This document shows positions 1,766 through 12,464 of a stretch of 12,464 nucleotides of DNA, piece by piece (position 1 is the stretch's first letter; the number at the start of each line of letters is the position of its first letter). Under the pieces are notes generated by a model. It did not search any database, had not been told where the DNA came from, and saw only the letters and a list, made by a program, of their open reading frames with translations. The stretch spans positions 1 through 12,464 of the forward strand of contig JBFMGU010000299.1 of assembly GCA_040752415.1 (NCBI GenBank). The letters are read 5' to 3'. The DNA is from Myxococcota bacterium. Its GTDB lineage: Bacteria > Myxococcota > JACRCW01. The position numbers were made by a program, and so were the translations under genes.

Positions 1766-2204
1766 ATGATCTCGTGGGTGACGGGTGCGGTGCTCGTCAC
1801 GGAAATCCGTGCGCCGTTCCGCGAAGCGCGAACCCCGCGTCACTCCCCGACGAGCCGATGGGTACCGCTCACGCTCGTGCCCGAGGATTCCGCGCTTCCC
1901 CGACGAGAAGCATGGTGTCCGCGTGCGGGACCTGGCGCCGTTCACGCTGCTGGCCGCGGCGCTCGACGACACTGTCTACGTGCCGTCGGAGCTCGAGGTG
2001 ATGGCGGGCGGTTGTCCCCGCTGGGGTCGCCGGTACAACCGAGGAGGAGGGCGGCGTGGGCAATGCACCGTGCCAGGCGGATGCGCGAGACGTGCGTCGG
2101 TGCCCAACCGCTGCGCGACGCATTGCCCGGTGGCACGCGCTCGGATAGCCATGCGCCGCGCTGCGCGGTGGGGCGGCGCGTCACACCCAGGAGATCCTGA
2201 ATGA
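1766..2204 (+). pseudogene. Possible small hypothetical gene, apparently frameshifted near 1897-1901
   Basis: GGAG-rich RBS then ATG 1766 (MISWVTGAVLVTEIRAPF...VPLTLVPEDS) with GC-rich third positions. Coding-like bias continues in another frame (DEKHGVRVRDLAPFTLLAAALDDTVYVPSELEV), which ends in an ATGA overlap with the 2201 start. No family recognised. Confidence 0.22.
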
Positions 2205-4204
2205 GCCCGGCCCAGACCATCCGCATCCCCAACGAAGTGCTCTTCCTCACCGAGGATCCCAACCTCCTCAAGGAGCAGCTCGACGGGAAGAAGCTCACCC
2301 ATGATCCCAACCGCCCCCTCATCAACAACATCTCCACCGACGAGCTCACCCCCGGCTGGGTCTGCTTCTGGTACGACGAGACGCTGGGCGACTACTGCCT
2401 GGTGGGCCTGCGCGGCGGCGTGGTGCAGAAGGACAGCATCAAGAACCGCAAGCCCGCCGTCATCGTCAGCGGACTGAGCAAGGGCTGCGGCTCCTCACGC
2501 GAGACCGCGCCGTACGCCGAGAAGGTGGCGGGCGTGAAGCTGGTCATCGCCAAGACCATCGAGAAGATCTACGGGCAGAACTGCCAGAACATCGGCCTGC
2601 TCACGTCGACGGACTTCTCGCTGCTCGAGCGCATCGAGCGCGGCGAGGAGATTCCCATCAGTGAGTTCACCAAGGGGCTGGATGCCATCAGCGCGGCGAT
2701 TGTCGAGGCGGGCGGGCTGTTTGCGTACAACCGCAAGCGCCTCAGCGGCGAGGTGGCCCCGCCCGTCATCACCACGCCGGCGCGGCCCATGACGCTGGTG
2801 GAGAAGATCATCGCCCGCAACGCGGTGGCCGACGCCAAGACCGGCAAGCTCGGCGTCACCGCGGTGAAGCCGGGGGATGCGCTGTTCTGTCGCGCCGACC
2901 TGCGCTTCACCCACGAGTACGTCACGCCCATGGCGGAGGCGTGCTTCGTCGAGGGGTTTGGCAAGGACGCCAAGGTGAAGGACCCCAGGTCCGTGGTGGC
3001 CTTCCGCGACCACCTCACCTTCATTGGCCAGGTCATGCCGCAGAAGCAGAAGGACATGGGGCTGCTCAAGCTGGCCGACAACCTGGCCGTGGTGCAAAGC
3101 GACTTCTGCAAGCGCCAGGGCATCCGCCTCTACGACGAGATCAAGGACGCCTCCGGCAAGGTGGTGGGCTCCCAGGCCATCTGTCACAACGCGGTGCTGG
3201 AGGACCTGGCGCTGCCGGGTGACCTCGTCATTGGCAGTGACTCGCACACCTGCACCGCGGGCGCGCTGGGGACGTTCGCCTTCGGCGTGGGTTCCACCGA
3301 CGTGGCCAATGCCTGGTACACCGGCGACATCCGCGTCACCGTGCCGCAGACCGTCCGCTATGAGCTGGTGGGCACGCCCGCCGCCGACATCTGCGCCAAG
3401 GACATCATCCTGTTCATCATGGCGCAGGACTACATCAAGAGCGGCAAGGCCATTGGGCAGGTGCTGGAGTTCGGCGGGCCGGCGGTGAAGCTGCTCAACA
3501 TGGATGAGCGCGCCACCCTCACCAACATGGCCGTGGAGGCCGGCGCCACGACGGGCGTGGTGGAGCCGGATGACGTCACGCTGGACTACCTGGCCGCGAA
3601 TCGACCGGGAATCGACCGCGAAGCGGTGCGCAAGCGCTTCCTGTTCGCCGACAAGGACGCGCAGTACGTGGCCACCTTCAAGATCAACCTCAGCGAGATC
3701 CGTCCCGTGGTGGCCAAGCCCGGCGACCCGCGCAACGGCGTGTTCCTCGACGAGCTGATGAAGGAGAAGGGCAACATCAAGGTCGACATCGCCTATGGCG
3801 GCTCCTGCACCGGCGGCAAGATGACCGACATGGACATGTACGCCAGCGTGCTGGAGGAGGGGCTGCGTCGCGGGATGAAGGTGCACCCGGAAGTGGCCAT
3901 GTACATCCAGTTCGGGAGCCAGCGGATCAAGCAGTACGCCGTCGAGAAGGGCTACCTGAAGGTGTTCGAGGCGGCGGGCTGCAAGGTCATTGAGCCGAGC
4001 TGCGGCGCGTGCATCAAGGCGGGACCCGGCGTCAGCAAGAACGACGCGGAGGTCACCATCAGCGCCATCAACCGGAATTTCCCCGGTCGCAGCGGTCCGG
4101 GCGACGTGTACCTGGCCAGCCCGTACGTGGTGGCGGCCACCGCGCTGGCCGGGCACATCACGAGCCCGGAAGAGCTGTTCGGGAAGAAGCGCGCCGCGGC
4201 GTGA
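2201..4204 (+). CDS. Aconitase/3-isopropylmalate dehydratase/homoaconitase-family [4Fe-4S] hydro-lyase, fused, with N-terminal LeuD-like swivel domain and C-terminal LeuC-like domain
   Basis: Swivel motif GCGSSRE (2483-2503). Large-domain motifs MTLVEKII, DHL, ICH, GSDSHTCTAGALG (DSHT 3239-3250), RATLTNMAVEAGA, GGSCTGG (Cys 3806), CGAC (4001-4012), NRNFPGR and YLASP. AGGAG RBS upstream and strong codon bias. Confidence 0.93.
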   Translation: MSPAQTIRIPNEVLFLTEDPNLLKEQLDGKKLTHDPNRPLINNISTDELTPGWVCFWYDETLGDYCLVGLRGGVVQKDSIKNRKPAVIVSGLSKGCGSSRETAPYAEKVAGVKLVIAKTIEKIYGQNCQNIGLLTSTDFSLLERIERGEEIPISEFTKGLDAISAAIVEAGGLFAYNRKRLSGEVAPPVITTPARPMTLVEKIIARNAVADAKTGKLGVTAVKPGDALFCRADLRFTHEYVTPMAEACFVEGFGKDAKVKDPRSVVAFRDHLTFIGQVMPQKQKDMGLLKLADNLAVVQSDFCKRQGIRLYDEIKDASGKVVGSQAICHNAVLEDLALPGDLVIGSDSHTCTAGALGTFAFGVGSTDVANAWYTGDIRVTVPQTVRYELVGTPAADICAKDIILFIMAQDYIKSGKAIGQVLEFGGPAVKLLNMDERATLTNMAVEAGATTGVVEPDDVTLDYLAANRPGIDREAVRKRFLFADKDAQYVATFKINLSEIRPVVAKPGDPRNGVFLDELMKEKGNIKVDIAYGGSCTGGKMTDMDMYASVLEEGLRRGMKVHPEVAMYIQFGSQRIKQYAVEKGYLKVFEAAGCKVIEPSCGACIKAGPGVSKNDAEVTISAINRNFPGRSGPGDVYLASPYVVAATALAGHITSPEELFGKKRAAA

Positions 4205-4553: not shown

Positions 4554-4922
4554 ATGTGCCAAAACGCGTATGTCCTGGTTGTCGACGATGACGTGGATCT
4601 TCGCGACTGCGTGGCGCTGTGCCTTGCCAGCGCGGGATTCCAGGTGCGGTCCGCCGGCGACGGCACCGAGGCGCTGCAACACCTGGCCGAGTCACCGCCC
4701 GCGCTGATCATGCTGGACATGCGCATGCCACGCATGGACGGGCGGGCCTTTGCCCGGGAGCTCCAGGTCCGCCATGGGCCGGTGGCGCCCATTGTCGTCA
4801 TGACCGCCGCGGAAAACGCCGGCGCCGCCGCCGCCGAGATTGGCGCCGCGGGAGTGCTGGGCAAGCCGTTCGACGTCGACGAGCTCCTGCAAACCGTGGA
4901 AAGGCACCTCCAGCATTGCTGA
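4554..4922 (+). CDS. Single-domain (CheY-like) response regulator
   Basis: VLVVDDD acidic pocket, LDMRMP phospho-acceptor Asp followed by MDG, VVMTA and KPF. 122 aa with no output domain. GAGGGGG RBS upstream. Confidence 0.93.
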   Translation: MCQNAYVLVVDDDVDLRDCVALCLASAGFQVRSAGDGTEALQHLAESPPALIMLDMRMPRMDGRAFARELQVRHGPVAPIVVMTAAENAGAAAAEIGAAGVLGKPFDVDELLQTVERHLQHC

Positions 4923-6408
4923 TCTCACGACGCGAGCTGCTGGCCGGGTTTGCCCGCTGCCTGGTGGCTGGCGGCGCGGCGGGATGGGGATTCCGTGAGA
5001 ACGAGGCGCGCCTGTTGGGGCTCGTCGGTGGCTCCCCGGACCCGGGCGACACCGTGGAGGCCGCGCGCAGGTTCCGCGGCGTCACGCTGAACGTGGGCTG
5101 GGAGACCGGCCTGCAGGCCCAGGAACCGCTGCGCTTCAGCGGACCGCTCTGGCACAGCCTCACCGGCATCCACATCAACGTGGTGGAGCTGGGCATGCCC
5201 CAGGACCAGTTCCGCCGCATCATGCAGGATCACCACGCCGGCGCCGGAGAGCTGGACTGCATGACCGTGGCCCCGGCGTTCCTTCCCGACCTGGTGGACG
5301 CGGGCGCGCTGGAGCCGCTGGACCCCTACCAGCGCGCCCACGGCGCGGACTCCGACGAGGCGGACCTCCTGCCGCAATATGCCAACCTGGGTGACTGGAG
5401 CGGGCGCCGCTACGGCCTCTTTGACGACGGAGACGCGCTCCTCCTCTTCTACCGGCGCGACCTCTTCGAGTCCGAGCGGAACCGGCGCGCGTTCGAGCAG
5501 GAGCACGGCCACCCGCTGGGCGACCCACGCAGCTATGACTGGTCCGCGTTCGTCGACGCCGCGCGTTTCTTCACGACCAGGTTGGCCCCGCATGGCTACG
5601 GCCTGGCGCCGTTTGCCCGCGACCTCCGTTGGGGTTGGTTCCAGACCATGTTGCGCGTGGCGCGTGGTCGCTTCTTCAACCCGGAGACCATGGACGCCGC
5701 GCTTGCCGAGGAGCCCCGGTGCGGACCATGGAGCGCCTGGCCCAGCTGCGCGACGTCATGCCGCCACTCCCCGGCGACCCACCCGCCGTGGACGTGGTCA
5801 TCTCCACCTATCTCTCCGGCAGCGCCGCCATGGCCACGTTCTGGCCGCCCCTGGGACGGTGGGCCGAGAAGTACGGGTCGGAGCACGAGGGGCTGACCCA
5901 CCTGCCGCGCAGCCAGGTGTCGGGAAGAACCGGCTACGCATTGCTTCCCGGCGGCTTCACGCAGTTGTCCGTGGGCTTCCTGCTGTCCATCTCGGCGCAC
6001 AGTCGCAACAAGGAAGCGGCGTATCTCTTCATCAAGTGGCTGCACAGCCCCGACATCAGCCTGCGGCGCGTCATGTACCCCGCGGCGCTGCGGGACCCGT
6101 ACCGCCTGTCCCACGTCCGCTCCCAGGTGTACCGCTCCCTCTGGCCCACCGCGGGCGAGTACCTGGACACCCTGGCGCAGGCCGCGTCCGGGCGCATGTT
6201 CCTGGACCTCATGATCCCCGGCCACGCCGAGTACGCGGAGGCGTTCCACGTTGCCGACACCGACATCCGACTGGGCGCCAGCGTGCCACGGGCCATGCGG
6301 CGCCTGGCGGACGCGTGGGACGCCATCACGGACCATCATGGTCGTCGTCGACAGCGCGCGGCCTACGCGGCCTTCCTGTCCCGGGCCGGCCCGCTGCTTC
6401 CGCCATGA
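4916..6408 (+). CDS. Tat-exported extracellular solute-binding protein (sugar ABC-type SBP family), split by a 1-nt frameshift at about 5714-5718
   Basis: TTG start at 4916 overlaps the regulator stop. Twin-arginine motif SRRELL is followed by a hydrophobic stretch. SBP-like segments: TGIHINVVE, LVDAGALEPLDPY, DGDALLLFYRRDLFE, then in the next frame SRNKEAAYLFIKWL and RDPYRLSH. The frames join at GAG GAG CCC CG GTG CGG ACC ATG if one base is restored. The stop overlaps the kinase start (ATGA). Confidence 0.85.
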
Positions 6409-8219
6409 ACCGCGTGAGCTTCCGCACCAGCCTGCTGGTGTCCTTCGCCCTGGTGCTGTCCCCGGTGGTCGTGCTGCTGGCCACCACCTTCCGCGCCAAC
6501 CTCACGCGTGAACAGCAAAGCACCCTGCATCTCCAGATGCTCTCCGCGCAGGCCTTCGCGCTGCACATTGAACAGGTCTTCGACGCGGCCGAGGGCCTGG
6601 CGCTCGCCGTGGCCCACGACCCCCTGACGCACACCATGGACCCCCGTCTGCTCGACGAGCACCTGCGCGACCTGGTGCGCGACCACGGCGGGGTGGACGC
6701 CGTCAACGTCTTTGACGCGCGCGGCATCAACCGTGGCTACGGGAATCCCGACCAGGCGGCGGAGCCGCGGCTGGACGCCTCGCAGCGGGATTACTTCCGC
6801 GTGGCCATGGCCACCAATCTGCCCGCGCTCTCCGACGTGGTGACGCTGATGCGGCCACCCGTGCCCGGGATTGTGGTCAGCGCGCCCATTCGCGACGCGG
6901 AGCGCAGACCGGTGGGCGTGGTGCACGTGGTGCTGCACGCCGCCCGACTCACGCGCGAGTACCAGGCCATGCGACTCAGCCCCGGGCAGGCGGTGCTCCT
7001 CATGGACCGGAAGGGACGCCTGGCATTCCACACCGGAGCGCCGCTGCTCACCGACGAGGACGCCCGCGCCATGATCAACCTGGACCTGGTGCACCGCGCG
7101 CTCTCCGGAGTTGCCACGCAGGGCGAGGCCTTCACCGATCCCGTCACCGGCGAAGTGCACCTGGGCGCGTTTGTTCCGACGCCACGGCATCACTGGGTGG
7201 TGGGCGTGATCATGAACCGCGTGGTGGCCACGGCTCCCCTGCAGGCCCTCTTCCGACGAGAAGTCCTGGTGTTGCTGCTCCTCTCGCTGCTGAGTGGAGG
7301 GCTGGCGTTGTGGCTGGCGCGGCGACTCTCGCATCCCGTCCGGCAGCTCCAGTCCGCCGCCCTTGCGGTGGGACGCGGCGCCATGGGCGCGCTGAGGCTT
7401 CGCACCCGCAACCGGGAGCTGCTCGACCTGGAGCAGGCGTTCAACCAGATGCAGGCGCAGCTGGAACAGCGCGAGACGCAGGTGCGCGAAGCGCTCACGC
7501 TCCGCGAGGAGTTCATGGTTGCCGCCGCGCACGAGCTCAAGACACCCGTCACCACCATCAAGACGTGGGCAAGGTTGCTGAGGGCCGGTACGCAATCCGC
7601 GGAACGCGTGCAGCAGGGCTTGCAGGCGGTGGGGCGACAGGCGGAGCGGATTGCCATGCTGGCGGATGACCTGCTGCTGGTGGCGCGCTTCAAGGCGGGG
7701 TCGGCGGCACTGGAGCGGGAGGAGTTGGACCTTCACGAGGTGCTCGACGAGGTGGTGGCCCGAGCCACGCGAGGGAACGGCGAGCAACCCGTGCGCGTGG
7801 TGGCGGCCCCGGGCGCGTTGTGGGTGCGCGGCGACCGCGAGCTGCTTGGCCGCGTGATTGCGCGACTGCTGGAGAACGCCATCAGCTACTCACCTTCCGG
7901 CGCGGAAGTGGTGGCTGCCGCCGAGAAGCACGGGACCGACGTCACCATCTCCGTGTCCGATCACGGCGTGGGAATCCACCCGGAGCGCCAACAGCACGTG
8001 TTTGAGCCGTTCTATGAAGTCGTGCCCGCGGGGGAGCGCGGCTACCGCAGCACCGTCAGCATGGGGCTCCACGCCAGCTACCAGATCATCGCCGCCCACG
8101 GCGGCAGGATGGGCGTGGTCAGCACGCCGGGAGAAGGCTCCACGTTCTGGTTCCGACTCCCGCTGGCCAAGGAACACGTCGTGGGAGCTGGCGGTGACGA
8201 GCGACGGGACAATGTGTGA
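6405..8219 (+). CDS. Membrane sensor histidine kinase (TM-dCache-TM-HAMP-HisKA-HATPase)
   Basis: Start MNRVSFRTSLLVSFALVLSPVVVLL (TM1). Cache motifs RDYFRVAM, IVVSAPIRD, VGVV, LMDRKGRLAFH and WVVGV. TM2 and HAMP (PVRQLQSAA...ELLDLEQAFNQM). H-box AHELKTPVTTI, N-box LLENAISYS, DHGVGI, FEPFY and GEGSTFWFRLP. The ORF-track extension to 5379 is a shadow frame of the SBP gene. Confidence 0.94.
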   Translation: MNRVSFRTSLLVSFALVLSPVVVLLATTFRANLTREQQSTLHLQMLSAQAFALHIEQVFDAAEGLALAVAHDPLTHTMDPRLLDEHLRDLVRDHGGVDAVNVFDARGINRGYGNPDQAAEPRLDASQRDYFRVAMATNLPALSDVVTLMRPPVPGIVVSAPIRDAERRPVGVVHVVLHAARLTREYQAMRLSPGQAVLLMDRKGRLAFHTGAPLLTDEDARAMINLDLVHRALSGVATQGEAFTDPVTGEVHLGAFVPTPRHHWVVGVIMNRVVATAPLQALFRREVLVLLLLSLLSGGLALWLARRLSHPVRQLQSAALAVGRGAMGALRLRTRNRELLDLEQAFNQMQAQLEQRETQVREALTLREEFMVAAAHELKTPVTTIKTWARLLRAGTQSAERVQQGLQAVGRQAERIAMLADDLLLVARFKAGSAALEREELDLHEVLDEVVARATRGNGEQPVRVVAAPGALWVRGDRELLGRVIARLLENAISYSPSGAEVVAAAEKHGTDVTISVSDHGVGIHPERQQHVFEPFYEVVPAGERGYRSTVSMGLHASYQIIAAHGGRMGVVSTPGEGSTFWFRLPLAKEHVVGAGGDERRDNV

Positions 8220-8338
8220 CCGCAGCGGGTCGCACGGATCACTCGCCGCTGGCGCTGCGCGCGGGGGACCGATGGAATGGGCTTCCTCCAAGGATGCAAT
8301 CGATGCCACCGTTGGCTGGTGGTCGATTCGGAGGTGGC

Positions 8339-9687
8339 ATGTCACGCGGATCTGGGCGCCATCAGCCGTGCCCATGCGGGAGCGGCAAGAAGTTCACGGC
8401 GTGTCACGGGAAAGCCGACGAGAGCGCCGGGGCCAGCCCGCAGGCGTTGGCCAACGAGACCCACGCCATCGACATCAGGTTGCTTGAACGGATCCTCAAA
8501 CACGCGAAGTCGCGCCTGGGGCCCGCGCGGCTGGTCAGCGTGTTCGACGAGGTCGTCGCGGCGTTCGGCGAGGACTCCGAGGGCGCGGAACAGATCGTGG
8601 CGCCGCTCGCGCTGTTCGCGATGCAGCCCGGAGGCGCCGCCCCCTGGCAGCGCAGTACCTCGCGGAGCATGGGTCCGCGCTCACCGAACGCGAACGAAGC
8701 TGGCTGGAAGCCCAGTTGGCGGCGCATCTCTCCGTGTGGGAGGTGCAGGACGTTGCGCCGGGACAGTGGCTGGACCTCAAGGACCTCTTCACCGGTGAAA
8801 CCCGTCGCGTCCACGAGGTCCGCGGGTCCCGCGTGGCGACCAGGCGCATGTGCCTGCTGACGCGCGTTGCCGACTGGGCGGGGATCTCCCTGCTGGCCGG
8901 CGTGCACCCGAACCCGCTGCCGCCCGAGCCAGGCGCCGGCGTCGTGGCGGAAATACGCACGTGCCTCGGCGCAAAGAAGAAGCCCGTGCCCCTCAGCAAG
9001 CTCCGGGACCCGGAAACCGCGCTGGACTTGCTCACGCTCTGGGGGAACGTGGTGGCTGCGCTGGACCGGCGGCCACCACCGACGATGGTCAACATGGACG
9101 GGGACCCGCTGCTCTTCACCGCGGACCACTTCCGCATTGCGCCCGGCGAGCATGATGCGCTGCTGCGCGACCTGGAGCGCATCCCGGGAGTGGAGCAGGG
9201 CGACGAGGGCAATCTCGTGTTCACGCGCAAGCCCAAGGCGAAGGGCGCGGGATTGGACAACGTGATCGTCGGCCACGCGCGTGTGGAGAAGGACGAGCTG
9301 ATCCTGGAGTCGAATTCCGTCCAGCGCGCGGATTGGTTGCGCGAGACGGTGGAGGGACGCGCGGGGACGCGGGTGACCTTCCGGGCGCGGACGCACCAGG
9401 ACCCGATGTCGTCGAACGGGGAGCGCAAGAAGCGCGCACCGCCACAGCCTCCACCGCCGGAACTGCGGGCCGCCATCCTCCAGCTCAGAGCGGAGCACTA
9501 CCGGAAGTGGCCGGATGTGCCGCTTCCCGCGCTGAAGGGAAAGACGCCGCGGGAGGCGGTGAAGCAGCGCGGGGGGCGCGAGAAGGTGGAGCAGTTGCTC
9601 AAGGAGATGGAGTCCATAGAGGCGGGGATGCCGGAGGGGGATCGGTTTGACTTCGCCGTGATTCGGAGAGAGTTGGGATTCTTCTAG
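8339..9687 (+). CDS. SEC-C zinc-binding motif protein with C-terminal Xre/MbcA/ParS-antitoxin-like helical domain, split by a 1-nt frameshift in the C-run 8640-8644
   Basis: GGAGGT RBS (8330-8335), ATG 8339, then GRHQPCPCGSGKKFTACHG (SEC-C). Adding one C to GCC GCC CCC TGG gives ...APLAAQYLAEHGSALTERERSWLEAQLAAHLSVWEV, in frame with ORF 8716-9687. The C-terminus HYRKWPDVPLPALKGKTPREAV...KVEQLLKEME resembles the WxxxPxPALxGxTP signature of Xre/MbcA/ParS C-terminal domains. Confidence 0.8.
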
Positions 9688-9723
9688 AATTGCAGTCGGC
9701 CAGCCAGCGCCGTTCAGATCACG

Positions 9724-12411
9724 TTACCGGATTGTCCTAGTCGGGAATAATGGCGGCAACGGTTTCCACTTCTTCCGCAGATCGGGATCGAGTGGGTCAT
9801 TGTGAAACAACCGTAACTCACCGACCGGCAAGGTTGCACACACCACATCGTCTTGTCCTCGCGATATCAGTCGGCATCCATCGCGCTCCCACTGCGCTTG
9901 TCGAGGTGTACGCACCCGGCAGTCGGAATAGGTGCCGTTATTCGCGACTCCGACAAATGCGTGAATCTCGAGCGCTGATGACTGAACGAAGTGCTCGAAG
10001 CTCGACGTATCCTTGTTCCATGCTGGCACGAAGAGAAGGTCAACGGCGCCAACCAACTGCGCTCGTGTGGCGAGTTCCATCAGTTCGCTGCAGATCAGAG
10101 GGATGAAGCAACCGTGCTCACTGCTGACTGTGATAAATCGGGTGGAAGGGTCGGGTGCGCTGAAGCCCACGCCTCTTCGTGTCAGCTGCTCTGCCTCCTC
10201 TCGGGCTGGACGACCCTTGTGCCACACCCACCAGGCACATGAGTGAAATGGGCGCGGAAGGTAGACAAACGCGTCGTTGAAAGCCCTGGTCCCAACCATG
10301 CGGTATTCACGTCCGGCGAGAAGGCCCAATGACGATTTCGCGAGGAATCGGCAAATGCCCCTTACCCAAGTCCGGGGAACGGACAGCTCGGGTAGCACAA
10401 GAATAGACGGGAGTTCGTCTCCTCGCTGGGACTCCTCCAGCGACCGATTCAGAACCCTCGCGAGACCGTCAAGGCGATCTCTCCCGTAGTGCGGATTTGA
10501 CAGCGACGCTTCCCACCACGAATCCCTTAGGCAAAGGTTACCCAAGATAACCTTGGTGGAGTCGGGGCTGGGAGTGCCTGGAACGCCATCTGGTGGAGCA
10601 ACTATGCGCGGTCCATCTCTGCGCATGGTAGGTCGGAAGTATCGAGTGCCCCGAATGGCGTTCAGGACAGGCAGTACCTTCTCAGGGTCATTTCCACCAT
10701 GTATCCATCGAGAAAGGATGTCAAAGTACGACGGCGGACGCACCATCAAGGCAAGCTGAACTTCGCTCATCCAATCATACACGTCGTCCCGAATCGAGTG
10801 GCAGATCCCCAGAAATGTCTTGTACGGTCCCGCTCTTGCCTGAAACTCTGGGTCTCTCTGTAGCGAGCGCCTAAGTCCATCGGCCACATGCGCGTGGATG
10901 CGAAGCTTGGGCGCTTGTTGGCCTAGGTCAGTCTCCCAGTCCAAGAGCCGAAGATCAGCTCGCCTGAGGCGTCGCGCATGGGCCACCAGAGTACTTTCAT
11001 CGTGTCGTTTGCGATCGGCTATCCATCCATGGGGTAGCGTGCTCCGTCTCAACAGTGACCGCCGGGTGCGGTCGAGGGGCATTGCAGCACAAACCTGCTC
11101 AAGAACGCGCGCCTCAAACCATGAAGTAAGGCGACGGCGTGACGATGGCCCCTCCAGCCGATCCTCACCCCAGTAGATCGGAAAGTTTTCGGCGTCCTTC
11201 GCAGACAAGAGCGCGATGCGTGCTGATAGACGGGAGAGGATACGACTTGACGATTCGTCGTCGCAGGCGACCAGCGTTGCGGCGAGAATCCGCATTGCTG
11301 TGTCAAAGAAGTCTATCCATCGGGACCAATCGGTGGCGAGTTCTGCCGCGGCCTGAAGATGTTCAGACGCGTATCGCGCTGCCTCGTGCGGTGGAAGAAA
11401 CGTAGCAGCGTTCACAACTTTGTCCGCGGCCGTGCCCACTGCGAGCCGCTTTAGGCTAAGAGCATCTGCATCGCGTAGACTGCGAGCCCGCTCTCCGTCT
11501 TGGCTTTGAAGAACGGCCACATCTATGTCACCCGTTCGAGGATCGAGGAACCGCCGCCGCTCACTGGATAGCTTGCGCAGTTCAGCGTCAACCGCATCCA
11601 CATAGGCTCGCGCCTCTGGCCCTTGCAGATCGAAGACGCGGACTTTGGTCGGTTGCACCCAGAGGTCGCTGCCGGGACGTTTCAATGTTTCCGCATCTAG
11701 GACCATTCTGGATGATGCGGAGTCTCGGAGTGGCACGAGGCGCGCGACGACGTCCCTTACTTTGTTCGACTCGTCCGCAGGAACCGACTCGACGAACACA
11801 ATATCGTCAACGTACCTCGCGTAGTGCACTACCGTCGGCAATGCCATGGCGCGACGGTCCAACTCAACCAGGGCGAGGTTGGCAACGACCCTTGAGGTGA
11901 GAGCCCCTATGGGTATGCCGATCTGGCGTTCGACCCTCAAAATGCGCTTAACTTGGATTCGAAAGCGCTGGTAGGCACGAAGCAAGCCATGTGTGGTCGA
12001 CTTATATAGGACGGGATCAAATCTCAGGTTCTGCCGACGTGCGTGCGACTCCAGTGCGTCGACAAATTCATCATCGACCAAGAACGACGGGTCGATACAG
12101 TCGTAGAAGGAGGCGAGATCAAGCGTTGTTAGCAGACAACGCTGGTGAGCGCCGACATACCCGTCCAGGATCTTGGTTGCAGCTCGCAGCGCGCCCTCTC
12201 GAAATGATCGGAAGGCGGGGGCCCAATAGTTGAACAGGCGAGAACCTCCGATATGCATCTCGGGTTCGGTCGAGCTTTGGTTCCGGCTAAGACGAAGACG
12301 ATTACCCAAGCATTCCCGGCCGAGAATGGAGTCCAAGCATGTGTGTCCGGATAGCAGAGGCCATGGAACTCTAACAATAACGCGCACATAGTCCGTTCGA
12401 GACCACGCCAC
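9724..12411 (-). CDS. Reverse transcriptase-nitrilase (carbon-nitrogen hydrolase) fusion; UG1/UG5/UG6-class, DRT1-like defence-associated RT; probably 5'-partial
   Basis: RT motifs: GNRLR, DLASFY (12103-12120), GIPIGALTSRVVANLAL (GIPIG 11905-11919), YARYVDD (YVDD 11803-11814) and QPTK. C-terminal nitrilase triad: LPELSVP (Glu 10387-10389), WHKGRPAREE (Lys 10216-10218) and LICSEL (Cys 10090-10092), plus PAWNKD and ANNGTYSDCRVRTP. The frame has no stop between 12411 and the window end, so the true start may lie outside. Confidence 0.92.
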   Translation of the reverse strand: MAWSRTDYVRVIVRVPWPLLSGHTCLDSILGRECLGNRLRLSRNQSSTEPEMHIGGSRLFNYWAPAFRSFREGALRAATKILDGYVGAHQRCLLTTLDLASFYDCIDPSFLVDDEFVDALESHARRQNLRFDPVLYKSTTHGLLRAYQRFRIQVKRILRVERQIGIPIGALTSRVVANLALVELDRRAMALPTVVHYARYVDDIVFVESVPADESNKVRDVVARLVPLRDSASSRMVLDAETLKRPGSDLWVQPTKVRVFDLQGPEARAYVDAVDAELRKLSSERRRFLDPRTGDIDVAVLQSQDGERARSLRDADALSLKRLAVGTAADKVVNAATFLPPHEAARYASEHLQAAAELATDWSRWIDFFDTAMRILAATLVACDDESSSRILSRLSARIALLSAKDAENFPIYWGEDRLEGPSSRRRLTSWFEARVLEQVCAAMPLDRTRRSLLRRSTLPHGWIADRKRHDESTLVAHARRLRRADLRLLDWETDLGQQAPKLRIHAHVADGLRRSLQRDPEFQARAGPYKTFLGICHSIRDDVYDWMSEVQLALMVRPPSYFDILSRWIHGGNDPEKVLPVLNAIRGTRYFRPTMRRDGPRIVAPPDGVPGTPSPDSTKVILGNLCLRDSWWEASLSNPHYGRDRLDGLARVLNRSLEESQRGDELPSILVLPELSVPRTWVRGICRFLAKSSLGLLAGREYRMVGTRAFNDAFVYLPRPFHSCAWWVWHKGRPAREEAEQLTRRGVGFSAPDPSTRFITVSSEHGCFIPLICSELMELATRAQLVGAVDLLFVPAWNKDTSSFEHFVQSSALEIHAFVGVANNGTYSDCRVRTPRQAQWERDGCRLISRGQDDVVCATLPVGELRLFHNDPLDPDLRKKWKPLPPLFPTRTIR

Positions 12412-12464
12412 TGCTGAATGAAGCGCGCATGGTCTCGTCGGAGGTGAAGGAACTAAAACTTTCT

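Follow-up and report, generated by a model that had tools for sequence, protein, structure and literature searches.

The 12,464-bp contig JBFMGU010000299.1, from the genome assembly of a Myxococcota bacterium (GCA_040752415.1), ends within a long minus-strand open reading frame (ORF) that joins a reverse transcriptase (RT) to a C-terminal nitrilase, and the question raised by this locus is whether it encodes a working antiphage system and to which defence family that system would belong. The window considered throughout is the whole contig (C222 of the 520-contig assembly G000). The original prediction for this DNA described a candidate DRT1-like antiphage system, encoded by one ORF of at least 895 amino acids with both catalytic centres intact. 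The family is almost certainly a different one, the UG5-large RT-nitrilases, and the gene is very probably interrupted by an insertion sequence (IS) whose end supplies the apparent start of the ORF, leaving what is most likely a recently inactivated remnant.

The minus-strand frame is open from position 12462 to the stop codon at 9724-9726, comprising 912 codons up to the contig end and 895 from a GTG at 12411, with only short plus-strand ORFs (≤118 amino acids) inside the RT-nitrilase gene. The RT motifs DLASFY, GIPIG and YVDD lie at the positions originally claimed (Table 1) and are invariant in alignments A1 and A3. The proposed nitrilase domain with its Glu-Lys-Cys set was likewise borne out; E692, K749, C791 and E793 were located and are invariant in alignments A1 and A2, and the nitrilase part, folded with 31 relatives, gave an AlphaFold2 model with a pLDDT of 91.9 and a pTM of 0.91. 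A Foldseek search with this model returned 213 Protein Data Bank (PDB) matches at E ≤ 0.001, the top list consisting entirely of nitrilase-superfamily enzymes and led by mouse Nit2 (2w1v, E 1.4e-12). In profile-to-PDB searches the DRT1 structure 9yfd ranked first among solved structures for the RT part (E 9.7e-11) and was the sole match of the nitrilase part (E 9.7e-12). The linker between the two domains occupies the same position as the connector domain of DRT11 (PMC13436386) and DRT1's domain of alpha-helical repeats (PMC13275509), as the two publications describe them.

Family membership was assigned by profile searches, including the PADLOC check recommended at the outset. The PADLOC model RT_UG5-nitrilase (PDLC03780) matched at 373.9 bits (E 5.5e-112), with protein residues 29-907 aligned to profile positions 119-891 of 907, and this is the only match of the model in the whole genome. 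Other PADLOC models that responded were the nitrilase-only RTasNitrilase (E 2.4e-30), RT_UG5_small (E 2.6e-12) and Drt1a, the next RT family after RT_UG5-nitrilase, at 64.1 bits. Pfam RVT_1 remained under its threshold (22.6 against 29.6 bits), as it did for DRT11 and for one of the two full-length relatives tested. The RT families of NCBIfam scored far below their cut-offs, including group II intron TIGR04416 (21.6 of 300 bits), retron_St85_RT (30.1 of 235), Ec67 (14.3 of 450) and Drt2 (40.2 of 390), and Rfam scans detected no retron non-coding RNA (ncRNA) family. The predicted fusion of a UG/Abi-type defence RT to a nitrilase is therefore upheld, as is its separation from group II intron and retron RTs, no such family reaching its cut-off, and, on the PADLOC and NCBIfam family scans, from the RTs of diversity-generating retroelements and CRISPR systems. 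The gene is, with near certainty, a UG5-large RT-nitrilase of the DRT11 type within class 3 of the UG/Abi RTs, and the description as DRT1-like does not hold in the family sense.

Searching 5.8 billion proteins for relatives of the window protein yielded 134 matches at E ≤ 0.001 among 7,999 scored candidates, the best of them 45% identical; nearly all are 980-1,050 amino acids in length, and they include proteins from Myxococcus xanthus, M. qinghaiensis, Corallococcus and Sorangium. The DRT11 gene of Sinorhizobium meliloti pSymA was recovered by tblastn, and in BLASTP the DRT11 and window proteins are 34% identical over 264 amino acids of the nitrilase and 26% over 350 amino acids of the RT. 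With DRT11 residues numbered as in PMC13436386, the YVDD, Lys, Cys and Glu of the window protein stand in register with YVDD 294-297, K833, C876 and E878. Against the RT_UG5-nitrilase model DRT11 scores 1,016 bits and relatives of the window protein about 400-430 bits. In a quick maximum-likelihood tree of 33 rows, from which four loci with frame breaks were excluded, the family divides into two deep, well-supported clades, the first containing DRT11, an E. coli plasmid gene and Nitrosomonas/Burkholderia-type genes, and the second containing the window protein, which groups with sequences from a Pseudomonadota metagenome-assembled genome (MAG) and M. qinghaiensis (SH-aLRT 100). The suggestion of an uncharacterised subtype is thus only partly right: UG5-large was already a known family and has since been characterised, having been validated in 2026 as DRT11, and what is new is a divergent member in a clade that the quick tree places as a deep sister to DRT11. 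In PMC13436386 and PMC13275509 no functional test of the window's clade was found.

The likeness to DRT11 (S. meliloti RMO17 pSymA; PMC13436386, 2026) extends from the PADLOC family to the architecture given in that paper, namely one chain of about 1,000 amino acids with an N-terminal RT carrying YVDD, a connector and a C-terminal nitrilase whose Lys, Cys and Glu align; a conserved transmembrane (TM) partner was not found in the window's clade either, and both genes occupy a variable or acquired DNA setting. The window protein differs from DRT11 in its low identity in both domains and its lower model score, in its separate deep clade in the quick tree, and in that its gene lacks the first ~125 codons owing to the IS. 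DRT1 (UG1; Klebsiella pneumoniae, 9YFD; PMC13275509, 2026) is also a class 3 UG/Abi RT with a fused nitrilase and probably shares with the window's family a protein-primed, template-free DNA synthesis that gates the nitrilase; however, it belongs to another UG family, its chain in 9yfd has 1,229 residues, and its Ser402 priming site is reported to lack conservation among the other class 3 DRTs. The UG5-small and UG6 systems are alike in having a related RT, as the RT_UG5_small match indicates, and a related nitrilase lineage, whereas their nitrilase is described in PMC13436386 as a separate gene and that of the window protein is fused.

Similarity to this family does not reach the apparent start of the ORF. 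In alignment A1 the initial 41-42 residues of the window protein align with nothing and similarity starts abruptly with LDSILG at residue 43, which is exactly the junction, at base 12337, with a 127-bp terminal repeat (12338-12464). Codons 1-41 of the open frame fall inside this repeat, and with them the GTG at 12411. Positions 1-118 of the RT_UG5-nitrilase profile have no match in the window protein; full-length relatives match this model from about position 21. Of 65 related loci, those of the closer relatives have tblastn matches that begin at query residue 42-43, and in the 57 of the 65 whose matches are near-complete the frame has another 94-430 codons upstream, in most cases 107-147. Window residue 43 aligns with a residue numbered 120-147 in every one of 34 aligned relatives, of which four are loci with frame breaks as cut, one of these in the N-terminal part. 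The missing stretch carries family-conserved positions, such as the nearly invariant W65 and K69 (alignment A3). The first 422 residues of a full-length relative were modelled with a pLDDT of 85.2, and the model matched the G2L4 RT with a Z-score of 20.0 (rmsd 3.1 Å, 267 residues aligned, model residues 1-368 on chain residues 5-300) and the GsI-IIC RT with a Z-score of 18.9. Because this model superposes on solved RTs from residue 1, the lost ~125 residues are predicted to be the beginning of the RT fold, and they can be read as its N-terminal extension and fingers hairpin. The originally described ORF of at least 895 amino acids is consequently real as an open frame and incomplete as a gene, with its GTG start inside an IS end, and the claim of two intact catalytic centres is half right, the motifs being kept in an RT that is without its N-terminal extension and fingers.

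The nature of the repeat is revealed by other copies in the same assembly. Over 12338-12462 (125 bases) it matches C130:1-125, in reverse complement, at 100% identity, with total divergence past the junction. On contig C130 the repeat adjoins a PAS-HisKA-HATPase kinase gene (C130:1-1553, minus strand) exactly where a receiver domain is due, and a custom receiver-domain hidden Markov model (HMM) run over all contig ends located the rest of this domain on C105 (1-420), 129 nt from the end, where it resumes at Pfam position 4, the first residue after the IS. About 126 terminal bases are common to the starts of C105, C196 and C277 and constitute the right end of the IS. The left and right ends are imperfect inverted repeats, with 14 of the 18 terminal bases matching, and at the kinase site a 10-bp direct target duplication, GGCGGAGGAC, is present on both sides of the IS. 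Inside the right end a basic ORF tail of 36 codons terminates 17 nt from the boundary, the ORF of the IS being directed away from the RT-nitrilase gene, and a Shine-Dalgarno-like GGAGG is found near 12440, about 100 nt inside the left end. The inverted ends, the target duplication and the splitting of a kinase by the same element make it highly probable that 12338-12464 is the end of an IS interrupting the RT-nitrilase gene, which was struck by another copy of the element than the kinase gene.

In its 14/18 matching ends, its 10-bp duplication at the kinase, its presence in at least three identical right-end copies and an ORF ending just inside the right end, the element resembles those bacterial IS that have terminal inverted repeats and duplicate 9-10 bp of their target; unlike these, its body and transposase lie outside the assembly and collection searches gave no match. 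The IS body was absent from the assembly, and BLAST of the 127-bp repeat in 401 genomes of the phylum gave short chance matches only, with no match in the one other genome of the family. Exact 22-mer scans in genome and metagenome contig collections, and a 25-mer scan with the right end in the metagenome contig collection, returned nothing, and blastn of the IS queries against plasmids and phages found no match.

The interruption looks recent, because the frame is undecayed, invariant residues are kept and the IS-end copies are identical. The retained 870 codons contain no stop and no frameshift, and they keep all 21 columns that are invariant across the 34 relatives. The retained part deviates at 8 columns that are invariant in 15 closer relatives, compared with 0-10 for control rows, which is at the high end without being an outlier.

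The fate of the severed 5′ fragment was pursued through the remaining IS ends. A tblastn search of the assembly with the first 150 amino acids of 13 relatives found no credible N-terminus elsewhere (best E 0.015). The bases following the right IS end are GTAGGTATCC on C196 and CTCCCCGGAG on C277, neither of which repeats the ten bases beside the IS end in the window, GGAGTCCAAG, and a right IS end followed by GGAGTCCAAG occurs on no contig of the assembly. The C196 and C277 flanks beyond the right IS end contain no RT coding sequence, and a family scan of the C196 flank detected no defence gene. The assembly contains three right ends and two left ends, therefore at least one IS-flanking contig must be missing from it. 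Two events are about equally likely: a simple insertion whose 5′ fragment went unassembled, and an IS-mediated deletion.

What an intact member of this family would do can be approached through the published relatives. According to PMC13436386, DRT11, the name given to the UG5-large system of S. meliloti, confers protection from podovirus-like phages at low multiplicity of infection only, its defence is abolished by RT DD296-297AA and by nitrilase C876A, a TM partner is not needed, and there is no sign of an ncRNA. In PMC13275509, DRT1 and the purified 'DRT5S' and 'DRT5L' are described as performing template- and RNA-free DNA synthesis that is covalently primed on protein; in DRT1 this DNA drives assembly of tetramers and filaments, both enabling and locking the nitrilase, activation requires a phage helicase, and the RT-inactive protein is monomeric, inert, non-toxic and without defence. 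The original idea that DNA synthesis regulates the nitrilase agrees with what both publications describe for DRT1 and DRT11. By inference from these relatives, an intact member of the window's clade may work like DRT1 and DRT11: its RT would make template-free, protein-primed DNA that is kept covalently on the protein, this synthesis would control assembly and activity of the fused nitrilase effector, and phage infection would free the effector, leading to abortive infection.

For the window copy, the proposed course of events is that the IS inserted at about family residue 125 of a UG5-large gene, which would have removed the N-terminal extension and fingers of the RT along with the native start and promoter, and the leftover frame would simply read on into the IS end. 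Judging from the relatives, a copy without N-terminal extension and fingers would be unable to polymerise and hence would neither assemble nor defend. Since defence by DRT1 and DRT11 requires RT activity, loss of function is likely, and the window copy is best regarded as a probable, recently inactivated remnant. The proposal of a candidate working antiphage system is thus not sustained for this copy, which is IS-interrupted and unlikely to be functional.

Other readings of the locus were weighed against this one. An intact and functional gene that looks cut by the contig end, its N-terminus lying just past 12464, would fit a frame that is open to the end of a contig in a fragmented assembly; however, the first 41 codons are unlike those of any relative, homology starts exactly at the repeat boundary, the residues that are missing are contiguous with residue 43 in relatives, and the same 125 bp adjoin an unrelated kinase gene as part of an element marked by inverted ends and a target duplication, which makes an intact gene highly improbable. 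The 5′ end of group II introns has the consensus GUGYG, and after CAT the repeat starts GTGTG, a resemblance that would allow the terminal repeat to be the 5′ end of such an intron lying antisense in the RT gene. This reading was rejected, the repeat having no Rfam match even at E ≤ 10, and little credence can be given to it when domain V (RF00029) has no matches in the assembly, the sole intron-type RT is the UG5 gene itself, an ORF with a basic tail stops 17 nt short of the right end, and that end is an inverted repeat accompanied by a 10-bp target duplication, which introns do not make.

The truncated frame might also be expressed from the IS end, starting at GTG 12411 or by read-through, and function without RT fingers as a stand-alone nitrilase effector or as a regulator of other systems. 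The 912 open codons, the in-frame fusion to the IS end and the lack of decay would be in keeping with this, but a recent insertion would leave the frame just as undecayed, a promoter search of 9400-12464 found no sigma-70-like site, the IS ORF is directed away from the gene, and RT-inactive DRT1 and RT-dead DRT11 are without defence (PMC13275509, PMC13436386); such expression with function is very unlikely. That the gene is after all a DRT1 (UG1) system, an identity suggested by 9yfd as the top solved-structure sequence match in both domains (E about 1e-11) and by an identical RT-linker-nitrilase architecture, is scarcely tenable given a Drt1a model score of 64 bits against 374 for UG5-nitrilase, relatives of about 1,000 amino acids against 1,229 for the DRT1 chain in 9yfd, and a direct search that recovers DRT11 and its relatives.

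Several points weigh against the reading of an IS-inactivated UG5-large gene. The assembly is fragmented, with 520 contigs at 96.8% completeness by marker genes, and with IS-flanking contigs missing from it a surviving 5′ fragment is conceivable; another possibility is that the source population is polymorphic for the insertion. A transposase was not seen, the visible coding content of the IS being 36 C-terminal codons and a Shine-Dalgarno-like site. The mechanism would be borrowed from relatives that are 26-34% identical and belong to the other clade, and the equation of DRT5S and DRT5L with UG5-small and UG5-large is a reading, the term UG5 not appearing in the text of PMC13275509. A further, combined possibility, which is unlikely on present evidence, is that the window's clade (with the Myxococcus and MAG homologues, at 39-45% identity), as a deep sister lineage of the DRT11 clade, constitutes a DRT subtype of its own that differs in priming site, trigger or nitrilase substrate, and that the window copy is a fresh IS-silenced allele whose 5′ fragment lies beyond the IS. 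If true, insertion and excision of the IS could turn the system on and off within a population.

The genomic surroundings of the UG5-large gene and its relatives bear on how it was acquired and whether it acts alone. The neighbourhood survey covered 51 of the 65 related loci, 30 of them closer relatives, with a crude, hydrophobicity-based call of TM segments. No family of flanking ORFs is common to more than two loci of these 30 closer relatives, and same-strand neighbours with a predicted TM segment, present in five of them, are mutually unrelated. At the window locus the gene downstream of the RT-nitrilase stop is convergent, and the IS has taken away the upstream side. Because no neighbour family recurs in more than two of the closer relatives' loci, the window's clade, like DRT11, appears to be a single-gene system. 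The GC content of the gene is 0.58-0.59 compared with 0.65-0.71 elsewhere in the window (sliding windows), falling near the stop codon, in an assembly of 11.0 Mb with high GC overall, and homologues are patchy, occurring at E ≤ 1e-20 in 6 of the 401 genomes sampled from the phylum, its own included. The lower GC content and the patchy distribution together suggest horizontal acquisition, and a horizontally acquired single-gene system that was subsequently interrupted is the best explanation of the locus and a likely one as a whole.

The distant clade that includes the DRT11 relatives (loci L076-L096; Nitrosomonas, Burkholderiales and related) shows a different arrangement, in which the RT-nitrilase is flanked by recurring large genes. 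Up to 10 loci have proteins of about 590-660 amino acids to one side or to both, 5 loci have proteins of about 870 amino acids directly downstream, and 4 loci (L077, L079, L080 and L085) have proteins of about 340-380 amino acids directly upstream. This neighbourhood may represent a conserved multi-gene block.

Table 1. Positions of the RT-nitrilase gene parts, the IS end and host genes in the window.
Feature	Position	Strand	Remarks
Retained 3′ part of the UG5-large RT-nitrilase gene	9724-12337	minus	About 870 codons plus stop codon 9724-9726; PADLOC PDLC03780, alignment A1, tblastn
RT palm and thumb part, residues 43-345	11428-12336	minus	Without N-terminal extension and fingers
RT motif A, DLASFY	12103-12120	minus	
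RT motif B, GIPIG	11905-11919	minus	
RT motif C, YVDD	11803-11814	minus	
Central linker, RT to nitrilase, residues 346-631	10570-11427	minus	Family-conserved (alignment A1)
Nitrilase domain, residues 632-912	9727-10569	minus	AlphaFold2 model, Foldseek, invariant residues
Nitrilase Glu692, in PEL	10384-10392	minus	
Nitrilase Lys749, in HKG	10213-10221	minus	
Nitrilase Cys791 and Glu793, in ICSE	10084-10095	minus	
IS left end	12338-12464	plus	Terminal inverted repeat about 12338-12355; body runs beyond contig
Ten bases beside IS end, GGAGTCCAAG	12328-12337	plus	Target-site duplication if insertion simple
Thiolase, host gene	270-1718	minus	GC about 0.65-0.70
Aconitase-family protein, host gene	2201-4204	plus	GC about 0.65-0.70

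In the remainder of the window, Rfam scans found no tRNA or credible RNA family in the RT-nitrilase region. The left neighbour of the RT-nitrilase gene is convergent and without family match, and an ORF with a SEC-C motif adjoins it. This SEC-C-motif ORF (8216-8860, plus strand) overlaps, in another frame, the neighbour itself, a 323-amino-acid ORF at 8716-9687 that converges on the stop of the RT gene, and the ORFs within 8216-9687 could be one frameshifted gene or two genes. A solute-binding-protein gene at 4619-6408 (plus strand) apparently lies in two overlapping frames, with ORF 4619-5896 corresponding to SBP_bac_1 profile positions 22-179 and ORF 5629-6408 to positions 204-304, suggesting a frameshift, that is, a pseudogene or an assembly error. 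It has on one side a response regulator (4554-4922) and on the other a dCache-HAMP histidine kinase at about 6390-8219.

A caution for the annotation of such loci follows from this case, in which an ORF open at a contig end resembled an intact 895-amino-acid gene but what looked like its start codon is part of a mobile element. For the RT-nitrilase defence family the locus adds a divergent member, which is of modest value, and it presents a defence gene that appears to have been caught soon after its probable inactivation by an IS.

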